This document shows, piece by piece, positions 39,991-56,496 of a stretch of DNA of 64,000 nucleotides. Both the position numbers and the translations under genes were made by a program. Position 1 is the stretch's first letter. Each line of letters starts with the position of its first letter. The notes below the pieces were generated by a model. It saw only the letters and a list, made by a program, of their open reading frames with translations. It did not search any database and was not told the DNA's origin. Origin of the DNA: Alphaproteobacteria bacterium (GTDB lineage Bacteria; Pseudomonadota; Alphaproteobacteria; UBA9219); contig WREW01000001.1 in assembly GCA_009779135.1 (NCBI GenBank), forward strand, positions 94,233-158,232, given 5' to 3'.

Positions 39991-40002
39991 CAGGACATAA
40001 GG

Positions 40003-40323
40003 ATGACTCAAGACCCTCCCCAAAATCAGCCGCCATCTCAAGACAAGTCCTTGATAAAAAAGGACAAAAGCGCCCCACAAGCGGTCGCCGGAAAGGCCTT
40101 GAGCGTCGTGCGGAATATACAAGCGACCATAACGGCTTACGAACAAAAGGCAGGGAAAGAGAAAATCCCGAACGCCTCGTTAATCTATGGCGTTGGCGCG
40201 GCGATACTTTTTGCCTTGAGCCTTTACCATTTCCTGATGGGCGGCTGGGCGGTCGGGCTGCTGGTCTTTTTGATTGCGAGCGCGCTGCTTGGCTTTTCGT
40301 TTTACTATATGCGGCTGATCTAG
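40003..40323 (+). CDS. small membrane protein
   Basis: 106 aa; two C-terminal TM segments; charged N-terminus. Confidence 0.35.
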   Translation: MTQDPPQNQPPSQDKSLIKKDKSAPQAVAGKALSVVRNIQATITAYEQKAGKEKIPNASLIYGVGAAILFALSLYHFLMGGWAVGLLVFLIASALLGFSFYYMRLI

Positions 40324-40434
40324 GAAAAAGGGCTGTTTTTTGTGAAAGCGTTAGCGCATGTAAACTGTTGTAACGAATCTTTGGGTGCTTTATAAGTTAT
40401 GGGGCTTCATGAAGGACAAGTAAGGAAGGACCTT

Positions 40435-40944: not shown

Positions 40945-41785
40945 GAAACAAACCACGATGCTGCTTGCTTTCGGCGTGATGCTTTTGGCGCTGAACACAG
41001 GGATGGCCTACGCGCAGCAAACTGTCGCTTTGGAAGCCTCCCCGCCGCCTCCGGCCCTGCAGGAGCTGCAGGAACAATCCGTGGGCGACAAGCCGGACAA
41101 AAGCTCGACCGTGGGCCTGCAGATTCGCGGCGATGCCTTGCGCGAAGCTGCTTTGTCTTATGGCGCGCGCGGCGGCCTTGCCTCCAGAACGTTTGAGATC
41201 CAGCGCCGCCTTGTTGAGCATCAAACAAGTCTTGGCAAAACATTTGATTTCAACAAACTCCTGATCTCTGCCCCCTCGGGGCTTTTGATTGAGCCGCCTA
41301 TTGTCTCCGAAGCGCAGCGCGCTGTTTTGGTCGGCTCAAGCGGTCAGGAAGCGGCTGTTGCGGATCGCATTTTCCGCATCAATCAGGCGGCGCGCATTGT
41401 GACCGCGCCGAGGGATTGGCGTCTTTATCTTGAACGCGACTGGGGCCGTGTGGATCCTCCCCCCTCTCTGCTTCTTCCCAAAGACAAGGATGAGCGGGAG
41501 CTGTGGCGTCAACTGGTGCAAGAAGGATGGGATGCCGGCATTGAGCAGGCACAGGAAATCTTTGAAGCCGATCTTGATCGTTTAACAAATGACTTTGTAG
41601 GGATGGTGCGTTATCGCGAGCTGCTTGCGCAAGGCATGATATCACCGCCTTATGCGATGCACGAGGACCGCGGCGTTACGGGCGGCGGGAAAGAGATGCG
41701 TGTAGGTGATCGCGGTGTTGCGATTACCGGACCTTCCGTTCTTATTCCTCGGAGCCAGATGTGGACGACGACGCCCCAACAGTAA
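40922..41785 (+). CDS. DotC/TraI-like T4BSS core protein
   Basis: Signal peptide; ALREAALSYGARGGLASR matches the conserved DotC/TraI block; 287 aa; position between the DotD- and DotB-like genes. Confidence 0.7.
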   Translation: MRRLIESKKQTTMLLAFGVMLLALNTGMAYAQQTVALEASPPPPALQELQEQSVGDKPDKSSTVGLQIRGDALREAALSYGARGGLASRTFEIQRRLVEHQTSLGKTFDFNKLLISAPSGLLIEPPIVSEAQRAVLVGSSGQEAAVADRIFRINQAARIVTAPRDWRLYLERDWGRVDPPPSLLLPKDKDERELWRQLVQEGWDAGIEQAQEIFEADLDRLTNDFVGMVRYRELLAQGMISPPYAMHEDRGVTGGGKEMRVGDRGVAITGPSVLIPRSQMWTTTPQQ

Positions 41786-43134
41786 AGCCACCGAAAGATT
41801 CATCCAAAGACAAGGTTTCGGTGGATAAGGAACATGCGTTCCTCGCCGGTTGGGAGGATGAGCCCCTACGCATCCAACCCGAACATGTGGATGATCTTCT
41901 TTTGTGGTGCATCAAAGCGCGCTCCACGGACATCAGCTTTCAAACAGACAGGCCTGTGACGATCGAGGTGGACGGCGTCCTCTATCCCGTCACGCGGCGC
42001 TCTTTGGATTCGGCGGATCTGACGAATATTTTGATGAAAATCTACGGCCCCGATGCGCTGGCCAAACTGGCCTCGGGAACGGATCTTGATTTATCCTACG
42101 AAGTCAGGCCGGAGCGGCTGACGCGCTTTCGTTTCCGCACGAACATCACGGCGATTTTAAGTCGCGGGCGTGATTCGGTGCAGATCACCATGCGTGTTTT
42201 ACCTTCTTTGCCGCCCACCATGCTGGAGCTGGGCATTGAAGATGAAATTATCCGCAACTGGTCGCCGCGTCAGGGATTGGTTTTGGTGACAGGCCCAACA
42301 GGAAGCGGCAAAACAACGCTTTTGGCCTCGGGCTGCCGCATGTTGATCGAACGCAAGCAAGGCTGCGGCAAGCTTTTGACCTATGAAGCGCCGATTGAAT
42401 ATGTCTATGACACGATCACGGGCGAACATTCGCTTGTCGCGCAGTCGGAGATTCCGCGTCACATAGGATCCTTTGCCGCCGGTGTGCGCAACGCGCTGCG
42501 GCGCAAGCCCAACATTATTCTGGTGGGTGAAGCGCGCGACCGTCTTACGATGTCGGCCGCGATCGAAGCAGGACAAACAGGCCATCTTGTTTATTCAACC
42601 GTTCATACGGTCGGCGTGGCGGCCACGGTACGGCGTATTGTCAGCGTTTTTGAACCATCAGAGCGCACGGAGCGCGCCTATGCCCTGATGGAAACGCTGC
42701 ACATGATTGTAACGCAAGCCTTGGTGCCGCGCAAAGGCGGCGGACGCATAGGCTTGCGTGAATATCTGGTGATTGACGACAACATCCGCGAGCAGCTTTT
42801 AGACATGCCCGTTGACCGCTGGACAGCGGAAGTCCAGCGTTTTCTTGTACGCTATGGGCGCACCATGGAGCAAACGGCCAACAAGGCTTTTGAAGACGGA
42901 AAGATTGACCGCCAGACCTATCTTTTCCTGACCAAGGGCCTTTCGGGCGAAGAAAGCCTGCTTGAGGAAGAAGCAGAGGAAAAAAGCCCGAAAAAAGGCA
43001 AAAGCGCTGCCAAAACCAAAGAACCACCCCCCAGCGAACCCTTGACCTACAAGGACGTCCTGCGCGCTGTCGATGAACTTGATCTTCAGGAAACCCCAGA
43101 TCATCCCGACGACGACGACACCACAATGATCTAA
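41761..43134 (+). CDS. DotB/TraJ-like secretion ATPase (PilT/VirB11 family) with extended acidic/Lys-rich C-terminal tail
   Basis: Walker A GPTGSGKTT; Asp box; ILVGEARD; His box YSTVHT; 457 aa, ~80 aa longer than Legionella DotB; tail EEEAEEKSPKKGKSAAKTKEPP...DDDDTTMI. Confidence 0.85.
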   Translation: MDDDAPTVKPPKDSSKDKVSVDKEHAFLAGWEDEPLRIQPEHVDDLLLWCIKARSTDISFQTDRPVTIEVDGVLYPVTRRSLDSADLTNILMKIYGPDALAKLASGTDLDLSYEVRPERLTRFRFRTNITAILSRGRDSVQITMRVLPSLPPTMLELGIEDEIIRNWSPRQGLVLVTGPTGSGKTTLLASGCRMLIERKQGCGKLLTYEAPIEYVYDTITGEHSLVAQSEIPRHIGSFAAGVRNALRRKPNIILVGEARDRLTMSAAIEAGQTGHLVYSTVHTVGVAATVRRIVSVFEPSERTERAYALMETLHMIVTQALVPRKGGGRIGLREYLVIDDNIREQLLDMPVDRWTAEVQRFLVRYGRTMEQTANKAFEDGKIDRQTYLFLTKGLSGEESLLEEEAEEKSPKKGKSAAKTKEPPPSEPLTYKDVLRAVDELDLQETPDHPDDDDTTMI

Positions 43135-43145
43135 TCCCCCCTTTT

Positions 43146-43251
43146 TGTCATCCTCGGGCAACCGCGAAGCGGTTGAGCCGGGGATCTGACGCCAGAGCAG
43201 CCTTCACCGTCAGATCCCCGTGCTCTTGCTACGCAAGCCACGAGGATGACA
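43146..43251. repeat. ~100 bp palindromic MITE/REP-like element, copy 2 (TGTCATCCTCGGG ... CGAGGATGACA)
   Basis: Same termini and internal CCGGGGATCTGACG/CGTCAGATCCCCG and CAACCGC-GAA-GCGGTTG / CTTGC-TAC-GCAAG hairpin modules as the copy at 23770, in a different order; flanked by CCCTTTTT/AAAAAGGG; lies just downstream of the dotB-like stop. Confidence 0.6.
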
Positions 43252-43341
43252 AAAAAGGGCCAGATCCTTTTTTATTGATGAAAAAAAAAGATTTGAGGTG
43301 TAAAAAGAGTCAAGAGCCTCAAAAGAGAGAAAGACAAAACC

Positions 43342-43614
43342 ATGGATGCACATTGGCGCAACACGCAGCGGGTGGTTCGCTTCACCTTTTTGGATGCGCG
43401 TTCCTTTATAGGCATTGTGTTTTTCCTTGTGCATTTGCGTCTTTGGGTTCTGGGGATGGCGGTCGTCATCCTTATTATTTTCTGGATTTTTGAGCGTTTT
43501 GGCCTTTCTTTTCAGTCCGCCCTGCGCGCGATGCGCTGCTGGTTCTGGGGCCGCAATCGTCCGGCCAACAGCCTAAGGGCGCGGCGCCGCACCATTGACA
43601 CGGGCTCCATATAA
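43342..43614 (+). CDS. IcmT/TraK-like small inner-membrane protein
   Basis: 90 aa; HWRNTQRVVRFTFLDARSF then one hydrophobic helix, matching my recollection of the IcmT/TraK N-terminal HWRD...FFLDAR pattern; position after the dotB-like gene, as in R64 traJ-traK. Confidence 0.5.
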   Translation: MDAHWRNTQRVVRFTFLDARSFIGIVFFLVHLRLWVLGMAVVILIIFWIFERFGLSFQSALRAMRCWFWGRNRPANSLRARRRTIDTGSI

Positions 43615-43937: not shown

Positions 43938-45026
43938 ATGCACAGAAAAAACAAAACTCACGTTATCTTGTCCGTTCGCTGCCTTGTGCTGACGATAGGT
44001 TTTTTGACCGCAGCAGCTCCGGCCTATGCGGGCTTTCAGTGGATTGCGCCCACGCCGCCTGCTGCGCCAGCGCCGCCGGTCTGGACGCCGCCGCAGGATC
44101 AGAATCCCTACGCCCAGACGCCGATCCAGCCTTATCCTGATGTTGTGACCTATGACCCGTATGACGGTTATCCGCAGGCTCTGCCGCCGGTGACTCAGCC
44201 TGAAACGGTCATGCCTTCCGGCGCTGCAACGGACATCGTGCAGGGTTTTGGGGATAATGTGCCGCTTTCGATCGCGCTGCGTCAGGTTTTGCCGCAGGAT
44301 GTCGGTTTTTCGGTGGCGCAGGATGTCAGTTTGGGAACACCGGTTTCTTGGCGCGGCGGCGCGCCTTGGCGTCAGATTATGGGCGACATGCTCACCCCTG
44401 CGGGTCTGAGCTTCCGCGAACAAGGCCCGATTGTTCAAGTGATAAGGGCAGGGGAGCTTCCTGCGGTAACGCAGCCTTTGTTGCCGCCCCCACTGCCCGC
44501 CCCCATGGCGCGGACGCCGGAAATGGCGCCTAGCTTTGCACCGCCTGCAAACGCGCCCATGGCGATTGTTCCCTCTGCGGAAAATTACGCGCGGCCACTT
44601 CCGCCGCCGCCTGCCGCCGCGCCATCTATGGCAACAGGCTATTTTCCTGCCGCGCCGGCGGGGATGAAGCCCGCGCCCATGGCTGCGCCGATGCCGATGC
44701 CCGCTATAGGCGGCCCTGCGGTGCCTACCAATTTTGTCCAGACAGGAACCATTGACAGCTGGAGCGCCAAAAGGGGCGATACGCTGCAAAATGTTCTTAA
44801 AAACTGGGCCAAACGCGCGGGGGTAGAAATGAACTGGAAGGCGGAATATGATTTTCCGCTTGAAGTCGGCGTATCTTTCACCGCGTCTTTCGAGGAAGCT
44901 GTGCGCAATCTTCTGATAGGCTTTCAGGATGCGAAACCCCAGCCTGTAGCGCATATGTATAACAATCCGGTTGTCGGCCAAACCGTGCTCGTTGTTGAAG
45001 TGCGCGGCAACGATTATAACAAGTAA
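43938..45026 (+). CDS. PilL-like thin-pilus protein (Pro/Ala-rich, C-terminal TcpQ-like domain)
   Basis: ATG 43938 with GAAGGG RBS; signal peptide; long proline-rich middle; C-terminal TGTIDSWSAKRGDTLQNVLKNWAKRAG...VEVRG resembles the TcpQ/PilL C-terminal domain. Confidence 0.5.
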   Translation: MHRKNKTHVILSVRCLVLTIGFLTAAAPAYAGFQWIAPTPPAAPAPPVWTPPQDQNPYAQTPIQPYPDVVTYDPYDGYPQALPPVTQPETVMPSGAATDIVQGFGDNVPLSIALRQVLPQDVGFSVAQDVSLGTPVSWRGGAPWRQIMGDMLTPAGLSFREQGPIVQVIRAGELPAVTQPLLPPPLPAPMARTPEMAPSFAPPANAPMAIVPSAENYARPLPPPPAAAPSMATGYFPAAPAGMKPAPMAAPMPMPAIGGPAVPTNFVQTGTIDSWSAKRGDTLQNVLKNWAKRAGVEMNWKAEYDFPLEVGVSFTASFEEAVRNLLIGFQDAKPQPVAHMYNNPVVGQTVLVVEVRGNDYNK

Positions 45027-45037
45027 CGAGGAACCAC

Positions 45038-46591
45038 ATGATCGCTCGCCGCCTTGCCATTCTTTTATGTGTTGTGGCCCTTGTGGCCTGTGAAAATAAC
45101 GAAAAGAATCGCACCCTCTTGGATCGTTATGCCGACCAAGCAACACGTCTGGGGCAAGAGGCTTTGGCGCCGGCCCCCAAGAAAAGCTATGATCCGCTGA
45201 CAGTTTCGGACAAGCTCTGGTCGGGAAGCAAGGCGGTGCGCCTGAATCGCGGCATTCCTCTGCCCGGAAAGTTTGAACATCCGCGCGGCGTCACGCTGAT
45301 CTCGAGTGAGCCGATTTCCCTGCGTGAAATTGCCTCATCACTTGGCGGACAGACGGGTATTCCCGTCCGTCTTTTGGACGGCGCGAATGAAGATATTGTC
45401 GCCGCCTCGCGTATGCCGATTGCCTATGAAGGCCCCTTATCCGGCCTTTTGGATCTTGTCGCGGGCAATTATGGCGTAAACTGGCGCAATGACGGCCACT
45501 CCATCAAGATTTCACGGTATGAAACGCGCATTTTTGTGATTGAATCCCTGCCCGGCAAGCAAACCATTAGGGACGGTATTGCGGGAACGGCAACAGACCT
45601 GAATGCCACTTCCGGCAGCGGTGGTGGTGGCGGCACCGGCGATTTAACGCTGCAACAATCTGCGGAAATGAGCAGTGAGTACAAGATCTGGGATGAGGTT
45701 CAGCAGGCCTTGACCGCCATTTTGGGCGGGGTCGGCACTTTGGTGGTTTCGCCTTCTTCAGGCACGGCCACCGTGACCACAACACCTGAAATCATGGCCG
45801 CAGTTTCGCGGTTTATTGAAGAAGAAAATCGCCGCCTTACACGCCAGATTGCCATTAATATTGAATCTTTCTCGGTGGATCTGGCTGAAAATTCGGATTT
45901 CTCCTTGTCCTTTGAAGCGGTGCTTAAAAAGCTTACGAATTTAGGCGTCAGCGTCAGTGGCGTCACAGGCGCCACCGCCACAACGGGCATGGGCAATATC
46001 TCGATCGCCGTTCTGAATCCCGAAACGGTGGGGCAAGTCACAAGCATATTTTCGGCCCTTTCATCCGTGGGGGATGCGGCGCGTGTGGCCCAGTTTCCCT
46101 TAACAACGCTGAACAGCCGCACGGTTTCAAGGCGCGTGGGGCGTGAACTCAGATATGTGGCAGAGATTAACTCAACGCTGGATGGTCAGGGTTTTTCATC
46201 AAATGGGGTAAAAGTGGACACCGTTCGTGAAGGTTTTTCGATTCAATTAACGCCGCGCCTTTTAGAAGATGGGCGGATTATGATGCAATATTCGCTCCAA
46301 TTTACGGAACTTCTCAACATGGAAGTCTTTGATACTGGTGGTGGCGGACGTGTCCAGCTTCCTGAAACAGCAAACCGCATTTTTGTGCAGCAAGCCATGT
46401 TGCAGAGCGGATCAACCCTGATTATCGGCGGCTATGATGATGAGAAGGTTTCGCAAAAATCGCAGGGCATGTTCGGCGCTTATAACTATATATTCGGCGG
46501 CGGTGCGATCAACGCGAAAGTGCGAACCATGATGTTTATTGCAATCACGCCACAAGTTCTTGAGGTTCTACCCAGACCGGAGCATGGATAA
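45038..46591 (+). CDS. PilN-like secretin lipoprotein
   Basis: Lipobox LVACENN; N-terminal secretin-N-like region; C-terminal secretin block LIIGGYDDEKVSQKSQGMFGAYNYIFGG...MMFIAITPQVLE. Confidence 0.7.
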   Translation: MIARRLAILLCVVALVACENNEKNRTLLDRYADQATRLGQEALAPAPKKSYDPLTVSDKLWSGSKAVRLNRGIPLPGKFEHPRGVTLISSEPISLREIASSLGGQTGIPVRLLDGANEDIVAASRMPIAYEGPLSGLLDLVAGNYGVNWRNDGHSIKISRYETRIFVIESLPGKQTIRDGIAGTATDLNATSGSGGGGGTGDLTLQQSAEMSSEYKIWDEVQQALTAILGGVGTLVVSPSSGTATVTTTPEIMAAVSRFIEEENRRLTRQIAINIESFSVDLAENSDFSLSFEAVLKKLTNLGVSVSGVTGATATTGMGNISIAVLNPETVGQVTSIFSALSSVGDAARVAQFPLTTLNSRTVSRRVGRELRYVAEINSTLDGQGFSSNGVKVDTVREGFSIQLTPRLLEDGRIMMQYSLQFTELLNMEVFDTGGGGRVQLPETANRIFVQQAMLQSGSTLIIGGYDDEKVSQKSQGMFGAYNYIFGGGAINAKVRTMMFIAITPQVLEVLPRPEHG

Positions 46592-47871
46592 TGGCAACGG
46601 GTGTTGTTACCGTTGGCCGGCGTCAGTACGCAAGCGGCCTTTATTGGGAAAACAGCCCGAGCGGACGCATTTCCCAAGCGGCCAAAGAAGCCGCCCGCCA
46701 ACCTTCGGTAAGGGCCGCCTATTACGCCGCCCGCGCGGGCAACAAGCAAGGGCGCGTTCCCCAGTTCGGTCTGGCGCCGGAAACCCCGGGCTTGAAATCG
46801 GATATGCCCTCTTTGGCGGGATGTCTTGCCAACCAGCAGCCCGGCTCATGGATCGGCGCTTTCCGTCTAAGGGAAGGCGTTTCGCTTGTCATCGTCCGCG
46901 ATGACCTGATTGTCCCTGACGGCGATTTATTCTTCAATGACGAGACAGAAGCCCGCGACCATCTTTATCAGGAAATGGGTGTCGGCGGCTTCCAGCGCAC
47001 TTATGCGCCGGACTCTTGGGGGGTACCCGGGGCCGACACCATGCCGCTGGCGCTCCTTCTCAACGATAAAACAGACATCCGCCTGCGCTCGGTGGAGCTT
47101 TCCAAAGCCGCCAAAATAGGGTTTTTAATCGGGACGGTCGTGGTTTTGCTGATCGTTGCAGGCAGCTGGTGGTATCAGGCCGACAAAGCCAAGCAAGCAG
47201 AGCTGCGCCGCCAGCAAATGGAAGCGCTTGAGCGCATGCGGCGCGCCAAAAGCCCGCTGGATCCCTTTGGCGGCGGCCCGCCCGAATATCCCAAACCCGT
47301 CCGCAAATGGGAAAATGAGCCTCGGCCACTGGAAATAATCGAAGCCTGCCGCAAAGCGCTTGAAAAAGTCTCAACCAGAATCGCAGGATGGCGCACGGAC
47401 AGCCATAAATGCACCCCGGGCACCTTGACCGTCCGCTGGGCGCGCAGCACAGGCAATGCCGCCCCGCCGCCGGACTCTTTGGTCAATGACTCGGCCAATT
47501 CGGCCACCCGCAGCGTCTCTTTAGGCCTGTCCAAGCGGGGGCCAGAGGATCTTGTGGACCCAGATGTCATCACGCAGCGCTATCTTAACCAGAATTGGGG
47601 GGCAAACCACTCAAAGGGCCGGCTTAAACGCCTGCCGGACGACCCCCTGCCCAAGCCGCCGCCGAACTATAAAGGGGAATGGAATCCACCCCCCCCGCCC
47701 TGGGTTAAGCGTTCTTTTACGATTGAGGTGCAAACATTACCCGGGCAGTCAACATATTATCTTGAAGGCATACCGGGTTTAACCATCAGTTCAATATCCT
47801 ATCGTGGAGCGGGGCTGGCTGTAAATGGAACCTGGGCTATTGAAGGAGTGATTTATGAAAATCGCCGCTAA
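46591..47871 (+). CDS. PilO-like thin-pilus assembly protein
   Basis: 426 aa (R64 PilO ~430 aa); single TM at ~190; immediately follows the secretin gene with a start/stop overlap; assignment by position and size. Confidence 0.45.
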   Translation: MATGVVTVGRRQYASGLYWENSPSGRISQAAKEAARQPSVRAAYYAARAGNKQGRVPQFGLAPETPGLKSDMPSLAGCLANQQPGSWIGAFRLREGVSLVIVRDDLIVPDGDLFFNDETEARDHLYQEMGVGGFQRTYAPDSWGVPGADTMPLALLLNDKTDIRLRSVELSKAAKIGFLIGTVVVLLIVAGSWWYQADKAKQAELRRQQMEALERMRRAKSPLDPFGGGPPEYPKPVRKWENEPRPLEIIEACRKALEKVSTRIAGWRTDSHKCTPGTLTVRWARSTGNAAPPPDSLVNDSANSATRSVSLGLSKRGPEDLVDPDVITQRYLNQNWGANHSKGRLKRLPDDPLPKPPPNYKGEWNPPPPPWVKRSFTIEVQTLPGQSTYYLEGIPGLTISSISYRGAGLAVNGTWAIEGVIYENRR

Positions 47872-48652
47872 ACTTTCGCTAACGGTTCTGGCTGTTTGTG
47901 TGGGCTTTGGGCTTGTTCAGCTTGCTCAGGCACAAAACACAGCCGCGCCTGAAGCTGCACCTGTCGCCGCAAGCACGGCCAATGAAGATTCCGCAGCTGT
48001 GCGGGATGCGCTAAACGCCATTGATATGCCGTCAGCGCCAGCGCCGCTGCCGCCACCGCCGCCCAAGGTTGAAAAACCCGTAAGCCCCGCGCCGTCAAGC
48101 AAAGGAATTGACCTTAGCGATGCAACGGAAGAGTCAAGCGTTGTTCCGGCCTCTGTCAAAAAAATCGTTGATCGCCTTGATAACACGACCAAGGAAATCA
48201 TGCTGGAAGATTTGAACGCCGCGCGTGAAGCCATCGTAAAACTGGACGTCTTGATCGACATTGAAAAAAGACTGACCAACCTTATGGACATCCGGCGTGA
48301 TCGGGACGAAGCGGCGGCCGCAGCGGCGCCCCCGCCCGGACGCGGCATGCCCCCACCCCCGCCGCCGATTTTTGATATGCCGATGCCCGTCATGCCCATG
48401 CCGCCCATACCGCAGGATATGAGTTTCGGCCGCGATCCTGAAATCGTCCGCATCGTTGGTGCCGGTGGAAACTACATGGCGCAGATGAGGGATGAGGGCG
48501 GTGCCGTCAAACAACTCCGTGTCGGCGACAAGCTGCCCAATGGTTCCACGGTTTCTTCCATATCGCGCAATGGTGTGACATTGACGATGAGCGACAAAAA
48601 GACCAAGACCGTTCAAGTGCAGGATGTTGGAACTATTTTCAGCAACCGCTAA
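47855..48652 (+). CDS. PilP-like thin-pilus assembly protein (Pro-rich)
   Basis: Signal peptide; Pro-rich linkers; C-terminal beta-rich region typical of pilotin/PilP-like proteins; positional. Confidence 0.4.
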   Translation: MKIAAKLSLTVLAVCVGFGLVQLAQAQNTAAPEAAPVAASTANEDSAAVRDALNAIDMPSAPAPLPPPPPKVEKPVSPAPSSKGIDLSDATEESSVVPASVKKIVDRLDNTTKEIMLEDLNAAREAIVKLDVLIDIEKRLTNLMDIRRDRDEAAAAAAPPPGRGMPPPPPPIFDMPMPVMPMPPIPQDMSFGRDPEIVRIVGAGGNYMAQMRDEGGAVKQLRVGDKLPNGSTVSSISRNGVTLTMSDKKTKTVQVQDVGTIFSNR

Positions 48653-48703
48653 GGAAGAACATGGCCAGGGGAAGCTGAAGTCGGTTTGCAATGTTAAGAA
48701 TGG

Positions 48704-50647
48704 TTGAAAATTGTGCGCGATCTGATTGGGGAAATAAAAGATAAATTATCCTCGGCTTTGACGGGGCCGACTTCGGCTGCGCCTGAAACGCCTTCGCCCG
48801 CAGCTCCCAAAGCACCACCAGCCGCAAAACCGGCATCAAGCGCTTCCGCGCGCCCGACGGCCTCGGCAACGCCGCCCAAGGAAACCCCGCCCGCCGGCAA
48901 TAAATCATCTTCATCCCAAAAACAGCTTCATGATGATACGTCTGACTCCTCCAAGGTAAAGGTTGAAGATGAACGCAGTCTGGCCGTTGAAGGCGGGCTT
49001 GAGTTTACGGGCACGGTTCTGACGTCCGAAGACGGCGCGCTTAAAATACCTACCGAATCGCGCAATCTGTGCGTTTTGTTCGACAACGGCATGTGGCTTG
49101 TAAGCGCCTCGCACAGGCTTTCGCCGCTTGTGACATCTGTGGCGCAAATGGCAAGGCGTCACGGCTACAAGATCAATCCGCCGCGCTATGTTACGCCTAA
49201 TATTGTCCGCGCGGCCTATCTTTATGCCGACCGCCAGAACGCGGTTATGCGCCTTGATGACAACACGGTGCGCCGCCGCATTGTGGAAACGCTGCAAAAA
49301 GCCGCCAATGCCGGCGCCAACGATATTCATATCGAAGCCAGCGAAGGCCGCACGCGCATCGAGTTCCGCATTGATGGCGCTTTGCGCCTATGGGAAACAT
49401 GGACGCAAAAGGAAGGGGAGCTGATGCTCGCCTCCGTCTATTCGCACTCGGTGGGCCAATCCGGCGCAACCGCCAACTGGCAGGAGCCGCAAGCGGCCAT
49501 GCTCACCTCCACGGCCACGGGACCGGACACGCTGGCGCTGCCCAAAGGCGTGATCTCGGTGCGCTGCCAGTGGGTGCCTTTGTCGGATGGCGGGCGCTAT
49601 CTTAATATGCGCCTTCAATATGACTCGGCGCATTTGTTTGGCGAAAACTTTATTATGGCGGACGTGGACTCGCTTGGTTTTTCGCAAGAGCAGCTCAAGG
49701 TCGTCAAAAGCCTGCGACAGGCCCCGGGCGGCATGCGCATTTTTGCGGGGCCGGTGAATCAGGGTAAAACGACAACCCTGCGCGTGACGCTCAATCGCCG
49801 CATGGCTGAAACCAATATGCAGCTTAACTGTCTTTTGGTGGAAGATCCACCCGAAGGCGGCATTGTCGGCGCAAGACAGGTGGGTGTGTCATCCTCGGTC
49901 AAAGATGAACAGCGCGAAAAATCCTTTGTCGAGATCATGCGCTGCATGCTTCGTCTTGATCCTGACATCGTGATGCTTGGTGAGGTGCGCGATATTCAAA
50001 CGGCCCAGTTTGCCTTTCGTCTGGCTCTGACGGGACGTCAGGTCTATACGACAACGCACGTTTATTCGGCTCTGGCGGTTCCGCAGCGTCTGCGCGACAT
50101 CGGGATGGAGCCTTATCTTGTTTATGACTACCACCTTGTGCGCGGCATGTTCTGTCAGCGGCTTTTGCGCGGCATGTGCTCTTATTGCCGGATTCCTCTG
50201 GCGCAGGTGGCGGATGAATATGGGCCTCTCTACAGCGATCTTATGAGCCGCATAAGATGCGGTCTTGCGCTGATGGATGCTTCGCGCTCTGTCGGCACAG
50301 GCTCGCCCCTTGATCGTTTGTCCGAGCCGGATCTGAGCAATATTTATTTCGCCAACCCCGAAGGATGCAAACACTGCTTTAAAGGGCGGGTAGGCCGTAC
50401 CATCTGCGCCGAAGTGATCGAAACCGACCAGAGAATCATGGAGCTTTTACAGGACAACCGCATGGAGGATGCGCGTGAATACTGGCTTTCACCGACAGGC
50501 ATGAACGGCGTGACCATGCTATGGCATGCGCTTGAAAAAATCCGCCGTGGTGAAGTTTCTCCGGATGACGCCGAGTTTGAAGTGGGCTACCTTGCAAGTG
50601 AAAAAGACATCGTAGAAATCGAAAAAAGGCTGGGAGAAACCGCATGA
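48704..50647 (+). CDS. PilQ-like pilus assembly ATPase (GspE/PilB family)
   Basis: Walker A GPVNQGKTTTL; VMLGEVRD; tetra-Cys CSYC...CKHC zinc motif; N-terminal Ala/Pro-rich low-complexity extension. Confidence 0.85.
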   Translation: MKIVRDLIGEIKDKLSSALTGPTSAAPETPSPAAPKAPPAAKPASSASARPTASATPPKETPPAGNKSSSSQKQLHDDTSDSSKVKVEDERSLAVEGGLEFTGTVLTSEDGALKIPTESRNLCVLFDNGMWLVSASHRLSPLVTSVAQMARRHGYKINPPRYVTPNIVRAAYLYADRQNAVMRLDDNTVRRRIVETLQKAANAGANDIHIEASEGRTRIEFRIDGALRLWETWTQKEGELMLASVYSHSVGQSGATANWQEPQAAMLTSTATGPDTLALPKGVISVRCQWVPLSDGGRYLNMRLQYDSAHLFGENFIMADVDSLGFSQEQLKVVKSLRQAPGGMRIFAGPVNQGKTTTLRVTLNRRMAETNMQLNCLLVEDPPEGGIVGARQVGVSSSVKDEQREKSFVEIMRCMLRLDPDIVMLGEVRDIQTAQFAFRLALTGRQVYTTTHVYSALAVPQRLRDIGMEPYLVYDYHLVRGMFCQRLLRGMCSYCRIPLAQVADEYGPLYSDLMSRIRCGLALMDASRSVGTGSPLDRLSEPDLSNIYFANPEGCKHCFKGRVGRTICAEVIETDQRIMELLQDNRMEDAREYWLSPTGMNGVTMLWHALEKIRRGEVSPDDAEFEVGYLASEKDIVEIEKRLGETA

Positions 50648-51741
50648 ACATCGACATGGAAGATTTCGGCCGCCGGATCGCGCAGCTTCAATTCAAAAAC
50701 AGCCGCAAGCAGAGAATGCGCGTTTATCGCAAGCTTGAAGGCATGCTGCGCATGAACGAAGCTCTTTCGCGTGCGCTGGATCGCCTTTTTCAAAATGCTT
50801 CCGAGATGGGCAAATACCCAAACCGCCCCGCCGCGCGCGCGCTAAGGGAATGGTTTTTGAAAGACCGCGCCGGACAAGGCCTTTCCGAAGCCATGGACGG
50901 CTGGGTGCCTGATGCGGATATTTACATGATTCGCGCAGGGGAAGAGTCAGGCGCGATGGCCAAATCCCTCAAATCCATCCAGACCATGGGAGAGCGGGCC
51001 AAGCAAATGCGCGCCGCCGTGACGTACGCCATCGCCTACCCGGGTTTTATGCTTTTGCTTGTGGCGGGCGTGCTTTGGATGTTCGGCGTGCAGCTTATTC
51101 AAAACATGCGCAAGACCGCCCCGCCAAGCGTTATGGCCGCCATGGGCGGCGTGGGTGCCGTTTCGGATTTTATTGCGAATTGGGGCATATGGATTTTAGT
51201 CGGGATTTTCGTGGCGGTCATCATCATTGCCGTCACCATGCCTGTCTGGACGGGAAAAATCAGGATCAAGCTCGACAAATATCCGCCATGGGCGTGGTAT
51301 CGCGTGGTGCAAGGCAGTGGTTTTCTTTTGGGCCTGTCCTCGCTTTTAGGCTCGCAGGTTCCCCTCAAGCGCGCGCTTGAGATTTTGGAAGAACAAGCCC
51401 GCCCGTGGCTGCGGGAGCGCGTGCATGCCGCCCGTCAGGAAGTTTTGCGCGGTCGTAATCTTGGCGAGGCGTTGCGCACAGGCGGGTATAATTTCCCCGA
51501 CCCTTCCGTTGCGATTGACCTTGAGATTTTATCAGAGCGCGCGGATGTCGGCACGGTGATTGAAGAAGTGACCGATGAATGGATTGAAGACCAGATTGAA
51601 ATGCTTCAAGCCCAAGCGGTGGTGGCGCGCAATGTCGGCCTTGTGGTTGTGGCCGGAACGATTGTCTGGGCCTTCCGCTCCGTCTTTGCGGTTGTTGAGG
51701 CGGTGTCCAAAACCGGAAGCGGCGGCGGCGGCATGATGTAG
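50644..51741 (+). CDS. PilR-like inner-membrane platform protein (GspF/PilC family)
   Basis: 365 aa (the same length class as R64 PilR); three TM clusters with cytoplasmic domains in a GspF-like arrangement; overlaps the pilQ stop. Confidence 0.75.
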   Translation: MNIDMEDFGRRIAQLQFKNSRKQRMRVYRKLEGMLRMNEALSRALDRLFQNASEMGKYPNRPAARALREWFLKDRAGQGLSEAMDGWVPDADIYMIRAGEESGAMAKSLKSIQTMGERAKQMRAAVTYAIAYPGFMLLLVAGVLWMFGVQLIQNMRKTAPPSVMAAMGGVGAVSDFIANWGIWILVGIFVAVIIIAVTMPVWTGKIRIKLDKYPPWAWYRVVQGSGFLLGLSSLLGSQVPLKRALEILEEQARPWLRERVHAARQEVLRGRNLGEALRTGGYNFPDPSVAIDLEILSERADVGTVIEEVTDEWIEDQIEMLQAQAVVARNVGLVVVAGTIVWAFRSVFAVVEAVSKTGSGGGGMM

Positions 51742-51755
51742 AAAGAGAGATTGCC

Positions 51756-52424
51756 TTGAAAAAGAGAATCCATCTTTTAAGCGCCCTGAAACACTCGCGC
51801 AAAGGGTTCAGCCTTATGGAGATCGCCATTGTTCTTGGCGGCGTGGGGCTTGTTTTGGCGGCGGTGTGGGCGGTGGCGGATGTTGTCTGGCATGGCTATC
51901 ACTTCAGGAAAATGTCGCAGCAGATCACGACAACGACCCAGAATATCCGCACCCATTTCAGCCCGCGCGGCGGCATTTATATGCCCGGAACAGACCAACC
52001 CTATAATGTAGGCGAGGATCTTGAAGCCATGGTGAAGTTTTTACGGCTTATTCCCATAGAAATGCGCGAAGATCCCACGCGGGGCGATGACCCCGTTCAT
52101 CATGCTCTAGGCTCGGGCGACACAAGCAGCTTTCTTGTCAGGGCCGCCCAAAATAACGTAGGCGAAGCAACGTCGAAACGTTTTGAAATCATGGTGCGCC
52201 ACCTGCAGCGAAGTGATTGCATGCGGCTTTTAATGGAGTTTCCTGCTTTAATCCCCGAAATAGGCGTCCGCAGGGTATGTACAACAGCGGTCTGCTACAA
52301 CATTAATCCTGATGTCCCCGACACGGCGGACAATCAGGTCTTTCCCCTGACGCTGACAACGGCGGAAAGAATGTGCTCCAATCCGGATGGTGAGAACGAT
52401 GTCTCTTTCACTTTTATCCTTTAA
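51756..52424 (+). CDS. PilS-like type IVb prepilin (major pilin)
   Basis: Long basic leader ending ...RKG then FSLMEIAIVLGGVGLVLAAVWA; Gly(-1) and Glu(+5) prepilin signature with a hydrophobic helix. Confidence 0.75.
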   Translation: MKKRIHLLSALKHSRKGFSLMEIAIVLGGVGLVLAAVWAVADVVWHGYHFRKMSQQITTTTQNIRTHFSPRGGIYMPGTDQPYNVGEDLEAMVKFLRLIPIEMREDPTRGDDPVHHALGSGDTSSFLVRAAQNNVGEATSKRFEIMVRHLQRSDCMRLLMEFPALIPEIGVRRVCTTAVCYNINPDVPDTADNQVFPLTLTTAERMCSNPDGENDVSFTFIL

Positions 52425-53052
52425 ACGACCTCAAGTCGGCAAAAACAGCCGCGCCGGCTACACGCTTCTTGAAATGGGCCTCGTCATGATTGTGATGGTG
52501 ACGCTTTTTGCATCGCTTTGGGTGGTTGTGGCGCTGGTGACCCAGTCGATTTACCGCAAGCAGACCGTCAATCAAATCCTGCTTACGATCAACAATGTGC
52601 GCGATTTTTACACATCAAGCCTGCGCGTGCAGACGCCTGCGGGAAGCTCGGCAGCGGCGGATTTGACCAACTATCTTTTACGCCGTGGCGTTTTGCTGCC
52701 CGACCAGATCCGTGACCGCACGGCGGCCGTCTGGGTGGCGGATCTCCCTTGGGGGCCTGTGGCGGCGTCAGGCACCGTGATGAATGAAGGCGGCTTTGCC
52801 ATTGACGCGGCAGGGATTGATTCCTCGCGTTTCTTCAGATTGACGCTACGCGGCCTCAGCCGTTCAAATTGCATCACATTGTCGCCGGCCTTGACAGGGG
52901 TTGGCATGCCTGAAGGGCTGACAAGCGTGACCATCAATGACAATGCCCCTTCGCAACCCCCCGTGTCGCCGGATCAGGCAACCATTGAATGTGTGGAGCC
53001 TGAGGGTTTGGCGAACACGATTGAGCTCGTTTACAACCTAAGACGGGCGTAA
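52387..53052 (+). CDS. PilV-like minor pilin/adhesin (no shufflon)
   Basis: Leader ...NSRAG then YTLLEMGLVMIVMVTLFASLW prepilin signature; overlaps the pilS 3' end; no repeated 19-bp shufflon sites or rci recombinase nearby. Confidence 0.6.
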   Translation: MVRTMSLSLLSFKRPQVGKNSRAGYTLLEMGLVMIVMVTLFASLWVVVALVTQSIYRKQTVNQILLTINNVRDFYTSSLRVQTPAGSSAAADLTNYLLRRGVLLPDQIRDRTAAVWVADLPWGPVAASGTVMNEGGFAIDAAGIDSSRFFRLTLRGLSRSNCITLSPALTGVGMPEGLTSVTINDNAPSQPPVSPDQATIECVEPEGLANTIELVYNLRRA

Positions 53053-53186: not shown

Positions 53187-53693
53187 ATGGCAGTAGCTAT
53201 GGACATGAAAAACGAAGATGACCCCGCACAGAAAAACCAGAAATCCGTTTCGGCATCCATAAGCGGAATAGGACTTTCTTGGGCAGATCAAGATGATCTG
53301 TTGCGGCAGATGTGGCTGGATGGAAAACCGCAGGATGACATTGCGGCGGCGCTTGGACGCTCGGCAGCCGCGATTATGACGCGCGCGGCGCGTTTAGGCC
53401 TGCCGCGCCGCATGGCGCCGGGACGCAAGCGCGGCTATAAGCGCACCAACAGCAATGAGCGGCGCAAACTGGCCGCCGCCGGATCGCGCCGGATTCGCCT
53501 TGCTTTGCCGGAAGCGCCGGAGGAAGAAGACGTTTACGTGCCGCCTGAAGTCAAAACGCGCGTTTGCCTGATGTGCCTGAACAAGTTTCAATCGCAAGGA
53601 CGGCATAACCGCTTATGTTCTTCCTGCAAGGGCTCGGCGGATTATGCGACAGGCAACAGCACGCCGGACTTTACCTTTTCGGTTTCGAATTAA
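53187..53693 (+). CDS. GcrA-family cell-cycle-regulator-like protein
   Basis: N-terminal LSWADQDDLLRQMWLDGKPQDDIAAALGRSAAAIMTRAARLGLPRR matches the GcrA HTH pattern (W..E....L..LW..G.S...IA..LG...R.A...K..RLGL); basic linker; C-terminal CLMCLN...CSSCK Cys cluster. Confidence 0.6.
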   Translation: MAVAMDMKNEDDPAQKNQKSVSASISGIGLSWADQDDLLRQMWLDGKPQDDIAAALGRSAAAIMTRAARLGLPRRMAPGRKRGYKRTNSNERRKLAAAGSRRIRLALPEAPEEEDVYVPPEVKTRVCLMCLNKFQSQGRHNRLCSSCKGSADYATGNSTPDFTFSVSN

Positions 53694-53766: not shown

Positions 53767-54423
53767 TTGAAAGAGGTCATGATGTCGCTGAACGATGCTG
53801 TCTCCACAGTTTTATCGCGCAATACATTTTACCGCGATGGCTACAGGCTCCTGCTGCGTATCAGCCTGATTCAGGGCCTTGTAATTATTCTTTTGATCGC
53901 CTCGATTGTCACGATCGTTCTTTCGCTGGAAACGCGGTATATTTATTTCGCCACCACGGCGGATGGCCGCATCATCAATATTGTGCCTTTGAACGAACCC
54001 TACCGCACGCGCGGGGACGTGATTGCTTGGGCTGCGGGACGGGCGCAGGATGTGATGCGCTTTGGCTATAATGATTTCCGCCAGCGTTTGCAGGAATCAT
54101 CACAGCATTTCTCGGAAACAGGATGGGCCAGCTTTACAAAAGCCATGAAAGACGCCCGCATTCTGGAGGCTGTTGAAGGCCGCAAGCTGACGGTGGCTTT
54201 GGATGTTAACTCCGCCCCAGAGGTGCGCCGCGCCTTTGTGAATGAAGGCGTTTACACCTGGATTTTACAGTTTCCGGCCACCATTCGCTTTGACGGGCCG
54301 CAGGCGCCGCAGCCGATGCAGATTATCTTGACGCTTCAAATCGTGCGCGTCTCAACCCTGCAAAATCCGGCGGGAATCAGTATTGAGCAATGGATTGCCT
54401 CGCCTCGGGCAGGAGGAGGTTAA
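53767..54423 (+). CDS. DotI/IcmL/TraM-like T4BSS inner-membrane protein
   Basis: 218 aa; single N-terminal TM (LIQGLVIILLIASIVTIVLSL) then periplasmic domain; size and topology of IcmL; followed by a paralog, as with icmL/icmM in Legionella. Confidence 0.6.
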   Translation: MKEVMMSLNDAVSTVLSRNTFYRDGYRLLLRISLIQGLVIILLIASIVTIVLSLETRYIYFATTADGRIINIVPLNEPYRTRGDVIAWAAGRAQDVMRFGYNDFRQRLQESSQHFSETGWASFTKAMKDARILEAVEGRKLTVALDVNSAPEVRRAFVNEGVYTWILQFPATIRFDGPQAPQPMQIILTLQIVRVSTLQNPAGISIEQWIASPRAGGG

Positions 54424-54428
54424 GCGCC

Positions 54429-55163
54429 ATGCCGCAGAAGCCTCCGGAAACAGCCGCGAAGGCACCTTCTGGGCCTGAAAAAAAGAAAGCGCCCCCCAAG
54501 GTCAAAAAGGGGTGGAGTTTTTTCGATGATTCGCCCCCGCCTCAGGCGCTGAAAGGCGATCAGCTTTTCATTTATAAAAAACATAAAAATCTTTTAAGGC
54601 ACATCAGAAGGCAGACCTATATCATCATCATCCTGACCTCGGCCCTTTTTTTGACGCGGCCCTTTTTTCAGCCCATCATGGTCTATGTCGGCCTTGCGCC
54701 CCAGCTTCATGAAAGGCGCGAACTGCCGCTTGTCGCGTTGACCGAGCCGAATCTGACCGACCGGGCCGTCTTATCTTGGGCCACGGCAAGCATTACGGAG
54801 ATCCTGACCTTTGGTTTTGGTGATCTTGACGCGCGGCTTATCGGCCAATCCAGCCGGTTTACGGAAGATGGCTGGATCAGCTTCGTGAAAAGCTTTTTTG
54901 AGCGCGATTTGCAGGCAAGCTTCAAGGGCCGCCAGCTTGTTTTGACCACGGTGCCTGCCGATTCGCCGGTGATTACAGGGCGCGGCGCGGATCCGGACGG
55001 CGATTACGTCTGGAATGTTCAGATGCCCGTGGTGATGACCTATGCAACAAATAACAATGTTCAAAGCCGTGTGCGTAAAGTGGTTCAGCTTACGATTGCC
55101 CGGGTTCCCGCCAAGAAAAATATAGGGGGATTAGGCATAAAAGCTTGGAAAATGCTAGGCTAA
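54429..55163 (+). CDS. DotI-paralog (DotJ/IcmM-like) T4BSS protein
   Basis: GGAGGAGG RBS; Pro/Lys-rich N-terminus, one TM, periplasmic domain alignable to the preceding protein (LNEPYRTRGDVIAWAAGRAQDVMRFGYNDF versus LTEPNLTDRAVLSWATASITEILTFGFGDL). Confidence 0.55.
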   Translation: MPQKPPETAAKAPSGPEKKKAPPKVKKGWSFFDDSPPPQALKGDQLFIYKKHKNLLRHIRRQTYIIIILTSALFLTRPFFQPIMVYVGLAPQLHERRELPLVALTEPNLTDRAVLSWATASITEILTFGFGDLDARLIGQSSRFTEDGWISFVKSFFERDLQASFKGRQLVLTTVPADSPVITGRGADPDGDYVWNVQMPVVMTYATNNNVQSRVRKVVQLTIARVPAKKNIGGLGIKAWKMLG

Positions 55164-55359
55164 GCCGGATAAAAGGTGAAAGGCACCAAAAGCCTTGGGA
55201 AAAGCCTGAAAAGAATGCTTTCAACTTCTTGACCTAGGCCATAGGGTATGAAATAGGATGGCCATGGGAAAGTAAAAGAGATAAACGATATCTTAACACT
55301 CTTAGAGTGAAACAAGATATAAGTATATCCGGACGTTCAACCTGATTCGGGGATGGCAA

Positions 55360-56496
55360 TTGTTGTATAAACAGGGACGAAAAATAGCCGCATCCGTTGT
55401 CCTTGGCGCGGCTTTGACAGGTCTAATGACATGCGCGGCTGTGACAGCTTGGGCGCAGACAGGGCCAACGGCGCAGGCTATACCGCAGGATCTTTTGGAA
55501 GCGTTGCGTGAAGGCGCGCCAGTTCCGCCCCCCCCCAGTCCGCCCGCCGAGCAAGCGCAGAACAAAGAAAATGAAAGAGGGATTGAGCTCGACAGCCTCC
55601 CCCCCCTGCCGGAAATAACGGCCGAGCAGATGCTTTTGGAAAGACAGGCCTTTGAAGCCGCAGAAGCCGCCCGCGAGGAGGAAGAACGGATCCGCAAGGA
55701 AGAAGAGCATAACCGCAGATCCTACAAGCGCGCCACAGAAGGCCTTTTCCCGCTGACGCCGGAGCAGATTCGCCATTTCATGGAAAGGCTTGAAGCAACG
55801 CAGGCCGTCTCTGAGATGCCCTCTGGCGGCCAGCCGCAGGGCGAAGTCAAAATTGTCCATCTTTCTTTGGACCCCGGCGGGCAGCCGCCCACCATCAATC
55901 TTGCCGCAGGCTATGTCACCACCATTGACCTTATCGATCAGACGGGGGAGCCTTGGCCGATCGCGGACGTTGGTGTAGGCGGAAACTTTGAAGTCACGCC
56001 GACCGAGGCCGGCTCGCATGTTGTAAGGGTGATTCCTTTAACGCGGGTGGGCACGGGCAATCTGTCGATTTTGCTGAAAGGCCTTTCAACGCCGATCATC
56101 TTCAGACTATCTGCGGGCGGGCCGACTTTTCACATGCGCTTTGACGCCAGCGTGCCGCAGCTCGGCCCCAACGCAAAAACGCCTTTGATTAAGCAGCGGC
56201 GCGGCGTTGTGGCAGGGGATGTGGCCATGACGATGATTTTGGAGAATGCACCGCCTGACGGGGCGCAGCGTTTGAGGGTGGGCGGCCTTGATGCCCGCAC
56301 CATGGCTTGGCAGCTTGGGGGTCGGGTTTATGTGCGCACGCCGCTGACTTTGCTGTCACCGGCTTGGAATGCCAGCGCATCTTCGGCGGATGGAATGACC
56401 GTTTATGAAATCGGCGATGCGCCGGTGCTTTTGGTATCTGATAACGGCGCCATGATAAGGGCGCGCCTTATGCGGGATGAAAATGATGTCAAATAA
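55360..56496 (+). CDS. DotH/IcmK/TraN-like T4BSS outer-membrane-associated core protein
   Basis: Signal peptide; Pro-rich and acidic linker; C-terminal beta-rich domain (KIVHLSLDPGGQPPTINLAAGYVTTIDLID...); 378 aa versus IcmK 360 aa; position after the DotI-like pair. Confidence 0.55.
   Translation: MLYKQGRKIAASVVLGAALTGLMTCAAVTAWAQTGPTAQAIPQDLLEALREGAPVPPPPSPPAEQAQNKENERGIELDSLPPLPEITAEQMLLERQAFEAAEAAREEEERIRKEEEHNRRSYKRATEGLFPLTPEQIRHFMERLEATQAVSEMPSGGQPQGEVKIVHLSLDPGGQPPTINLAAGYVTTIDLIDQTGEPWPIADVGVGGNFEVTPTEAGSHVVRVIPLTRVGTGNLSILLKGLSTPIIFRLSAGGPTFHMRFDASVPQLGPNAKTPLIKQRRGVVAGDVAMTMILENAPPDGAQRLRVGGLDARTMAWQLGGRVYVRTPLTLLSPAWNASASSADGMTVYEIGDAPVLLVSDNGAMIRARLMRDENDVK

Follow-up and report, generated by a model that had tools for sequence, protein, structure and literature searches.

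A probable core-reduced R64-class type IVb pilus operon joined to chromosomal Dot/Icm-IncI-like secretion genes in an uncultured alphaproteobacterial clade

Introduction

What does a set of thin-pilus genes make when it lies inside a chromosomal secretion cluster, and how did it come to be there? The question is raised by positions 43938-53052 of a 64-kb stretch of DNA (the window, meaning the whole of the stretch that was analysed) from an uncultured member of the Alphaproteobacteria, the genome of which was assembled from a metagenome. An interpretation made from the letters alone, referred to below as the sequence-only reading, described these positions as a complete thin-pilus module of the type found on plasmid R64, placed between two blocks of genes for a Dot/Icm-IncI-like type IVB secretion system (T4BSS) and retained there, by implication, from a plasmid. 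The pairing of a type IVb pilus with a T4BSS is known from IncI plasmids and, for thin pili, has to our knowledge been studied almost only on the enterobacterial members of that group, in which the pilus serves to find recipients in liquid. The analysis presented here indicates that the locus is probably a core-reduced R64-class type IVb pilus operon, which would make cell-cell contact on behalf of the linked T4BSS and the pilins of which would be cut by a peptidase encoded elsewhere.

Results

Identity of the pilus assembly genes

Family assignments were made with Pfam and NCBIfam profiles, and proteins of R64 (NC_005014) were compared with the window by tblastn. Relatives were collected by scanning a PilN alignment against species-representative genomes, which yielded 57 loci (labelled L0xx), all of them in metagenome-assembled genomes (MAGs). 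The list of open reading frames (ORFs) and a reading of the sequence gave eight intact, co-directional ORFs between 43938 and 53052, with spacings of -26 to +51 nt in an operon-like arrangement, and gaps of 323 nt upstream (icmT-pilL) and 134 nt downstream separating the set from its neighbours. Coordinates, strand and order are those of the sequence-only reading. In the following list, and in motifs given elsewhere in the text, a slash marks the cleavage site:

43938..45026, + strand: pilL; Pfam TcpQ at 56.4 bits (cut-off 27), over residues 314-386 of the longer ORF
45038..46591, + strand: pilN, lipoprotein secretin; Pfam Secretin and Secretin_N_2, lipobox LVAC/E
46591..47871, + strand: pilO (PilO2); Pfam PAP_PilO (PF06864) at 107.2 bits (cut-off 26.7), profile positions 2-418 of 419
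47855..48652, + strand: pilP-like gene; TIGR03021 at 34.5 bits (cut-off 34.65), residues 178-244
48704..50647, + strand: pilQ, GspE-type ATPase; Pfam T2SSE at 179 bits
50644..51741, + strand: pilR, GspF-type polytopic inner-membrane platform protein; Pfam T2SSF at 77.9 bits, in two stretches
51756..52424, + strand: pilS, type IVb prepilin; ...SRKG/FSLMEIAIV, 17-aa leader, mature protein ~205 aa
52399..53052, + strand: second PilS-like prepilin, the 'PilV' of the sequence-only reading; ...SRAG/YTLLEMGLV, 20-aa leader, mature protein ~197 aa

Assignment to the R64 (PilL-V) class of type IVb modules, as originally proposed, is borne out by the TIGR02520, PF06864, TcpQ and T2SSE/T2SSF scores and by the tblastn comparison with R64. 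PilN in particular scored 248.6 bits on TIGR02520 (E 1e-73), against 87 bits on the MshL model and 16.7 bits on the GspD model, and aligned with R64 PilN over its full length at 24% identity (E 3e-42); the protein is predicted to form the outer-membrane channel for the pilus. PilQ and PilR share 29% (E 4e-49) and 28% (E 9e-31) identity with their R64 counterparts, respectively, whereas R64 PilO aligned only in part. By homology, PilO2 is a bitopic assembly protein of the inner membrane whose cytoplasmic domain is actin-like; the family that it matches, PF06864, is specific to the R64 variant of these systems, and PilO2 is related to BfpC (PMC3984277). PilQ carries a Walker A motif (GPVNQGKT) and a tetra-cysteine motif (CSYC...CKHC), and would be a zinc-binding assembly ATPase of the GspE type. 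The sequence-only reading had picked out the tetra-cysteine motif and had called the secretin a lipoprotein; the motif and the LVAC lipobox are both present. The start of PilQ is uncertain, lying either at TTG 48704 or three codons later, with a length of 644 aa as called in L002.

The two remaining assembly genes are pilL and the pilP-like gene. The pilL product is secreted, with a signal peptide (...AAAPAYA/GFQW, without a lipobox), and a Pro/Ala-rich linker leads to the TcpQ domain at its C-terminus. Its C-terminus resembles a 114-residue chain named 'Lipoprotein' in PDB entry 9u5s (9u5s_R, E 2.9e-7), which is present in 17 copies in that entry, a match that suits a secretin-associated protein; PilL is, on this evidence, the probable partner of the PilN secretin. 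R64 PilL itself matched orthologues in 21 of the related loci, with E values down to 5e-7. The pilP-like product is periplasmic, with a long Pro/Ala-rich N-terminal part ahead of a C-terminal PilP/GspC-type domain in which ~70 residues were matched. Neither Pfam nor a PDB search gave anything significant for this protein, and its orthologues in relatives are matched by R64 PilP at E 1e-4.

A separate feature of PilQ is a low-complexity N-terminal extension of ~180 residues (48704-49250), rich in Pro, Ala and Ser, which has no counterpart in R64 PilQ.

The two pilins

The leaders of both prepilins are basic, 17-20 residues long and end in Gly, and can be read as the sequence-only reading gave them (KG/FSLMEIAIV and AG/YTLLEMGLV), that of PilS only from a TTG start at 51756 with the sequence AGAGAG just upstream. 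Gene callers took a later ATG, thereby losing the cleavage site; the TTG start is favoured because the motif [KR]G/[FLM][ST]L.E is conserved in homologues. PilS has Gly at -1, Phe at +1, Glu at +5 and two conserved C-terminal Cys residues. The second pilin, which may start at 52387 and was given as 221 aa in the sequence-only reading, scored 22.4 bits on the Pfam family 'PilS N terminal'.

Pilin orthologues from the related loci were aligned as two sets, A2 for the first pilin and A3 for the second, and the resultant profiles were searched against the PDB. Both families keep three features without exception, namely Gly at -1, Glu at +5 and the C-terminal Cys pair. The first pilin profile matched TcpA (8uhf, 1.6e-9), CofA (9iuf, 3e-8) and BfpA (1zwt), and the second matched best to Salmonella Typhi PilS (1q5f, E 9e-9), followed by TcpA and CofA; in both cases the matches were to major pilins of type IVb, and not to type IVa or Flp pilins. 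Judged by these profiles, both proteins are type IVb pilins of major-pilin size. The label PilV, which the sequence-only reading attached to 52399-53052, reflects position only and has to be abandoned, since the profile of this protein leads to S. Typhi PilS and R64 PilV has no detectable similarity to anything in the window or the 57 related loci, the second pilin included.

The sequence-only reading had named placement in a Tad/Flp or type II secretion family as the finding that would refute it, and the scores run against both families. That the locus is a mislabelled type II secretion system (T2SS) or Tad/Flp pilus has in its favour the weaker matches of PilQ, PilR and PilN to the GspE, GspF and GspD models, and the annotation of some homologues as GspD by JGI. 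It is nonetheless extremely unlikely, given the TIGR02520 score of PilN noted above (248.6 bits, against 16.7 on GspD) and the presence of PF06864 and TcpQ. None of the T2SS features GspC, GspL, GspM or the pseudopilins GspG-K was found, nor was there a family match to TadZ, TadB or RcpC; the locus encodes a single GspF-type protein, and its pilins of ~200 aa, which match TcpA, CofA, BfpA and PilS, are not of Flp size.

Missing components

R64 PilM was without a match in the window or in the 57 related loci, and the gap between pilL and pilN is only 11 nt. R64 PilU, PilK/I/J, PilV and Rci likewise gave no tblastn match over the same sequences. Pfam scans of all sizeable window ORFs revealed no Peptidase_A24 and no tyrosine recombinase, and a search of 51.5-53.8 kb for direct and inverted repeats returned short chance pairs only, with nothing resembling a shufflon. 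The absence from the window of PilM, PilU, shufflon repeats and Rci was thus correctly called in the sequence-only reading. Its description of the module as complete was not: PilM, PilK, PilU and a PilV-type adhesin are all absent, and the locus is better described as a core-only version. By comparison, PilM2 and PilV2 are among the genes of those R64-variant operons that PMC3984277 sets out.

These absences give rise to the view that the locus is a decaying remnant from which no pilus is made, for want of PilM, PilU, PilK and PilV. R64 reportedly requires pilK through pilV, PilM, PilK, PilU and PilV among them (work by Yoshida et al. in 1999), and the version in the window is the shortest in the clade: it ends after two pilins, whereas many relatives have three to five (3-5) small pilins and a large pilin-like protein, and some a peptidase. 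Nevertheless, all eight ORFs are intact, with catalytic and processing motifs conserved, and the same short form is seen in the closest relatives (L004-L008 and L048). Moreover, PAPI-1 of Pseudomonas aeruginosa and Tfp7 of Burkholderia pseudomallei are R64-type operons that also lack pilU (PMC3984277). Decay of the locus to a remnant is accordingly regarded as very unlikely.

The lytic transglycosylase that the sequence-only reading had offered as a PilT analogue is indeed encoded upstream:

38485..39012, + strand: lytic transglycosylase (SLT), ~5 kb upstream of the pil genes; Pfam SLT at 20.9 bits

Its analogy with PilT is weakened, as the protein scored 79 bits on NCBIfam TrbN (E 5e-22) and 42.8 bits on IagB, and matched R64 PilT only at E 3e-4. 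From these scores it appears closer to the TrbN/VirB1-type enzymes of type IV secretion systems than to PilT, and its function may lie with the T4BSS and not with the pilus, or it may be shared by the two. A second transglycosylase, an SLT-domain protein of 488 aa, is encoded in the cluster at 30818-32284. It shares a Cys-containing C-terminal domain (RE[KR]FCLD...ALLSG...NQAC...ICIP) with the 260-aa product of 32281-33063, which is its paralogous partner.

The linked secretion genes and their chromosomal setting

The pil genes are flanked by dotD-dotC-dotB-icmT upstream and dotI-dotJ-dotH-dotG-dotF downstream, within a T4BSS cluster that spans 30.4-61.8 kb and has an R64-like order:

39028..43614, + strand: TrbB/DsbC-like thiol-disulfide isomerase, 106-aa membrane protein, DotD, DotC/TraI, DotB and IcmT/TraK; Pfam/NCBIfam
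53187..53693, + strand: GcrA-like small protein; Pfam GcrA at 26.8 bits (cut-off 26.9), NCBIfam GcrA at 25
53767..61783, + strand: DotI, DotI paralogue (DotJ-like), DotH, DotG, DotF-like protein, TraQ-like protein (DUF6750), 127-aa membrane protein and IcmJ/DotN
L061:13575-16307, - strand, outside the window: DotA/TraY homologue of 910 aa; TIGR04346 at 285.5 bits

Scores for the upstream block include 90.6 on Pfam DotD, 252.7 on T4SS_TraI and 81.4 on NCBIfam IcmT_TraK, with a match to T2SSE; those for the downstream block include 150 and, for the second DotI, 99.5 on Pfam DotI, 233.4 on DotH, a match to TrbI, and 142.8, 74.3 and 76.1 on the NCBIfam DotG, TraQ and IcmJ/DotN models. DotB scored 377.6 bits on the NCBIfam DotB model as opposed to 249 on TraJ, and both DotB and DotG scored higher on Legionella-type models than on IncI models. 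The core genes for DotC, DotD, DotH, DotG (and DotF), DotB, IcmT, DotI and DotN are therefore present in the window, with DotA lying outside it, ~3.5 kb beyond tyrS on the other strand and beside recQ; tyrS, tRNA-Arg, the gene for an AAA_21 ATPase and a 194-aa ORF intervene. The T4BSS genes are scattered among housekeeping genes.

The gene for the GcrA-like protein, which has a C-terminal CxxC...CxxC arrangement, stands between the pilin genes and dotI, and in L022 too it comes ahead of DotI. A dedicated role in regulating the T4BSS operon is possible for this protein. A CtrA box (TTAA-N7-TTAA) upstream of pilL was tried as a candidate site, given the GcrA-like gene nearby, and was rejected because it is not conserved in 33 loci.

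Three adjacent paralogous genes (33067-34617, 34631-36181 and 36190-37545), for secreted proteins of 516, 516 and 451 aa, stand at the head of the T4BSS cluster. Each protein has a signal peptide, a TrbJ/VirB5-like 'VFDPxxF' motif near the N-terminus, a helical region and a Cys-rich C-terminal domain, and the three share the C-terminal motifs GPRP...P.SG and TRPN; orthologues are found upstream of dotD in relatives. Beyond a weak match to DUF4141 there was no Pfam or NCBIfam match for the three, and a PDB search with the 451-aa protein returned nothing significant. They are possible substrates or, alternatively, components of a tip or adhesin-like kind.

The window is chromosomal. Its first 30 kb (1-30 kb) hold sodB, rph, the suf operon, pepN, flagellar genes, folKP, polA, tRNA-Gly and uppP, and to the right of the T4BSS cluster are tyrS and then tRNA-Arg. 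This setting bears on the view that the whole 30-62 kb cluster is part of a present or recent integrative and conjugative element (ICE), or an integrated IncI-like plasmid, in which the pilus stabilises mating pairs in liquid as it does for R64. The traH-I-J-K ... traM-N-O-P-Q-R-T order shared with R64, the TrbB-like and TrbN-like genes, the tRNA genes near both cluster ends (29353 and 63146) and the variable chromosomal position of the cluster among relatives could all be taken to favour such an origin, and conjugative plasmids of the MPF_I mating-pair formation type do exist in alphaproteobacteria. However, no relaxase, integrase, coupling protein or replication gene was found in the 64-kb window or in the 3.7 kb read past its right end. 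The uppP and tyrS genes lie between the tRNAs and the cluster, no att-like repeat of at least 14 nt matched the 3' end of tRNA-Gly or tRNA-Arg, and DotA is set apart from the remainder by tyrS, a tRNA gene and others. The GC content of the cluster is similar to that of its flanks, the flanks in relatives are again housekeeping genes, and DotB and DotG are nearer to Legionella-type models. Megablast of 43-54 kb against a plasmid collection gave no match, so the locus is not a known plasmid. A mobile element of this kind is considered unlikely, and the 'retention' of the pilus from a plasmid, as the sequence-only reading put it, is at odds with a locus that is chromosomal and present clade-wide.

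Elsewhere in the window, between pepN and the flagellar genes, positions 13485-15732 are of low GC content (0.44, compared with ~0.53 elsewhere) and encode an HTH_3 regulator and two further ORFs of 116 and 228 aa, the longer of which has a faint match to toxins of the restriction-endonuclease fold; the stretch could be a small islet of foreign origin.

Conservation among relatives

The MAGs that carry the 57 loci are labelled Alphaproteobacteria, Rhodospirillaceae, Rhodospirillales, Micavibrio or 'Bdellovibrionales', the last being the order under which NCBI files Micavibrio. The block that is conserved in them reads u282-SLT-TrbB-u106-DotD-DotC-DotB-IcmT-PilL-N-O-P-Q-R-S, and IcmT is the immediate upstream neighbour of the pil genes in 33 of the 57. 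Conversely, the DotI-DotF block is usually found elsewhere, for instance upstream of dotD in L022 and inverted upstream of pilL in L058 and L060. The conserved unit is thus dotDCB-icmT plus the pil genes, as opposed to an insertion between two Dot blocks; the latter description, from the sequence-only reading, is true of the window genome and fails for most relatives. Identity to the window proteins is 51-84% for PilQ, 45-78% for PilR, 35-61% for PilN and 21-45% for the pilins, a gradation that fits a functional machine with exposed, fast-evolving pilins.

The same loci inform the view that the operon makes a standalone pilus for adhesion, biofilm formation or surface colonisation, its adjacency to the dot genes being historical and the two systems uncoupled. 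Clusters of the R64 type without adjacent T4BSS genes are on record (Bosea plasmid pBSY19_1 and B. pseudomallei Tfp7), the 323-nt gap separates icmT from pilL, and the dotI block lies elsewhere in relatives. Set against these points are the persistence of the icmT-pilL adjacency in over half of these diverged species despite shuffling of other T4BSS parts, and the co-variation of pil and dot identities (r about 0.5-0.66). An uncoupled pilus is, on balance, judged to be quite improbable.

The nearest relatives of the PolA protein encoded in the window are 60-69% identical and come from MAGs of the same clade, and several lie on the same contigs as PilN homologues, which points to vertical inheritance. 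The adjacency to polA is not itself conserved in relatives, and the cluster occupies varying places on the chromosome.

Large pilin-like proteins with mature lengths of 390-476 aa are encoded in several relatives (L017:19023-20426, with similar proteins in L009, L014, L015, L019, L026, L043, L053 and L055). The one that was scanned, from L017, has an N-terminal type IV pilin methylation motif and a Peptidase_S74 domain (60.2 bits). In phage tail fibres and endosialidases, Peptidase_S74 acts as an intramolecular chaperone. The architecture is unusual and the protein, which is absent from the window, is a possible pilus-tip adhesin.

Genes of the Peptidase_A24 family stand where the operon ends, on the same strand, in two relatives (L026:14702-15220 and L055:19246-19701), both short and without the A24_N domain, and a PilD-type Peptidase_A24 gene lies near the pil operon in the most divergent locus (L051:9110-9934, - strand). 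In L008, an ORF judged by its sequence to be TadC-like adjoins the operon. A search with the PilN of L008 returned MAGs only, with no match from cultured Micavibrio aeruginosavorus. The paper describing the genome of M. aeruginosavorus ARL-13 states that a type IV secretion system was not in evidence, and in the part of its gene table that was available there were Tad and type IVa genes, with an A24 gene in the Tad locus, and no R64-type cluster was seen.

Discussion

Comparison with known systems

The closest parallel is provided by the thin pili of the IncI1 plasmids R64 and ColIb-P9 and the IncI2 plasmids TP114 and R721 (pilI-pilV), in which the same families occur in the same order, PilL-N-O2-P-Q-R-S. 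The likeness extends to the partner, an MPF_I-type T4BSS, whose gene order (traH-I-J-K, then traM-N-O-P-Q-R-T) is kept. In R64, however, traK is followed by nuc and sogL, whereas here the pil genes occupy that place inside the tra cluster; the locus is chromosomal as opposed to plasmid-borne, and identity to R64 is 24-29%. R64 also has PilI/J/K, PilM, an in-cluster PilT, PilU, PilV, Rci and a shufflon, all of which are missing from the window, with two small PilS-like pilins instead, and its PilL has the lipobox that is lacking in the window protein.

Loss of the peptidase gene is not peculiar to this locus. The PAPI-1 (pilL2-pilM2) and Tfp7 operons similarly have no prepilin peptidase, the PAPI-1 pilin being processed by PilD and the peptidase of another pilus system having been suggested for Tfp7; in Tfp7, moreover, a TcpQ-type protein stands in for PilL and pilT lies outside the operon (PMC3984277). 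Unlike the window, both retain PilM2 and PilV2 (PMC3984277), such that they set a precedent for the lack of PilU but offer none for the lack of PilM or PilV. PAPI-1 resides on an ICE whose transfer system is of a different type (MPF_G), and neither it nor Tfp7 is linked to Dot/Icm genes. Among plasmids of other alphaproteobacteria, the R64-type pil cluster of Bosea pBSY19_1 is far from the DotB gene of that plasmid, and in Methylobacterium pA an MPF_I system occurs along with a relaxase, pil genes being absent.

The Dot/Icm systems of Legionella, Coxiella and Piscirickettsia share DotC, DotD, DotH, DotG, DotI, DotN, IcmT and DotA with the window genome, scattered among chromosomal genes, and the best matches of DotB among annotated plasmids were to Legionella (L. 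adelaidensis, 47%) and Piscirickettsia (42%). These systems differ in having no embedded type IVb pilus operon, and IcmS/W/Q/R and DotU/IcmF, which belong to the Legionella-type Dot/Icm, were not seen in the sequence examined. The toxin-coregulated (TCP), CFA/III, longus and bundle-forming pili have in common with the window the pilin fold family (TcpA, CofA, BfpA) and the TcpQ domain. The window differs from them in its PilN-type secretin, PilO2 and PilP, and in being without a TcpB/CofB-type initiator pilin or a BfpF-type retraction ATPase.

A proposed mechanism

On the favoured interpretation, the prepilins would be inserted into the inner membrane and their leaders cut after Gly-1 by a class-A24 peptidase encoded elsewhere in the genome, a Tad-type or PilD-type enzyme being the candidate source. 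PilQ, PilR, PilO2 and PilP would then polymerise the pilins; in related systems, PilP is the assembly component that connects inner membrane and secretin. The fibre would leave through PilN, with PilL as partner of the secretin. Binding specificity would be fixed, and would reside in one of the two small pilins, because there is no shufflon and no large PilV adhesin in the window. The pilus would then most probably capture and hold a target cell so that the T4BSS can engage, much as the thin pilus of R64 or TP114 does; mating of IncI plasmids in broth and in the gut depends on the thin pilus, via PilS and PilV (PMC9045228). A part in cell-cell contact or attachment, as the sequence-only reading proposed, is a reasonable inference, and a role on behalf of the T4BSS is the most likely one because the dotD-dotC-dotB-icmT linkage is conserved across the clade.

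Several observations weigh against this interpretation. No prepilin peptidase is encoded in the 64-kb window, and the processing of the leaders is predicted from sequence motifs. PilM, PilK and a PilV-type adhesin are absent, and no substitute for them was identified. PilN, at 248.6 bits, falls below the NCBI equivalog cut-off of 287.65, and PilP is just under its own. Searches of the window and of every ±10 kb locus turned up no DotO/IcmB, DotL, DotM or IcmX. A scan for promoters and terminators around the icmT-pilL gap gave nothing convincing, such that neither a promoter nor a regulator site for the pil operon was established. Finally, functional coupling of pilus and T4BSS is suggested by gene linkage and by analogy with the IncI plasmids.

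Implications

A literature search retrieved no paper linking Micavibrio-like bacteria to Dot/Icm or describing this pil-T4BSS arrangement, which is not proof of novelty. The type of partnership is already known; what is new is a minimal R64-class operon joined to a chromosomal T4BSS in an uncultured alphaproteobacterial clade. A more speculative extension, advanced here only tentatively, is that this clade of flagellated bacteria with small genomes, among the relatives of which submitters' labels include Micavibrio, 'Bdellovibrionales' and Rhodospirillaceae, has domesticated a T4BSS and a grappling pilus, both chromosomal and vertically inherited, with which bacterial prey or a protist host is seized and injected with effectors. 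Were this true, it would represent a machine for contact-dependent predation or parasitism outside the Legionellales-type lineages, in which relatives vary target specificity via extra pilins and the large pilin with its tail-fibre chaperone domain.

Irrespective of that possibility, with this locus the range of chromosomal Dot/Icm-like systems widens past the gammaproteobacterial lineages that the reviews PMC11338181 and PMC8896642 cover, and a little-known group gains a candidate apparatus for attacking or attaching to other cells. The minimal gene set, without PilM, PilK, PilU and PilV, also bears on which parts an R64-class pilus needs. Here the pairing is chromosomally fixed, core-reduced and conserved across dozens of uncultured alphaproteobacterial species, which suggests that the pilus and the T4BSS are together a functional unit of old standing, open to uses besides the spread of plasmids.

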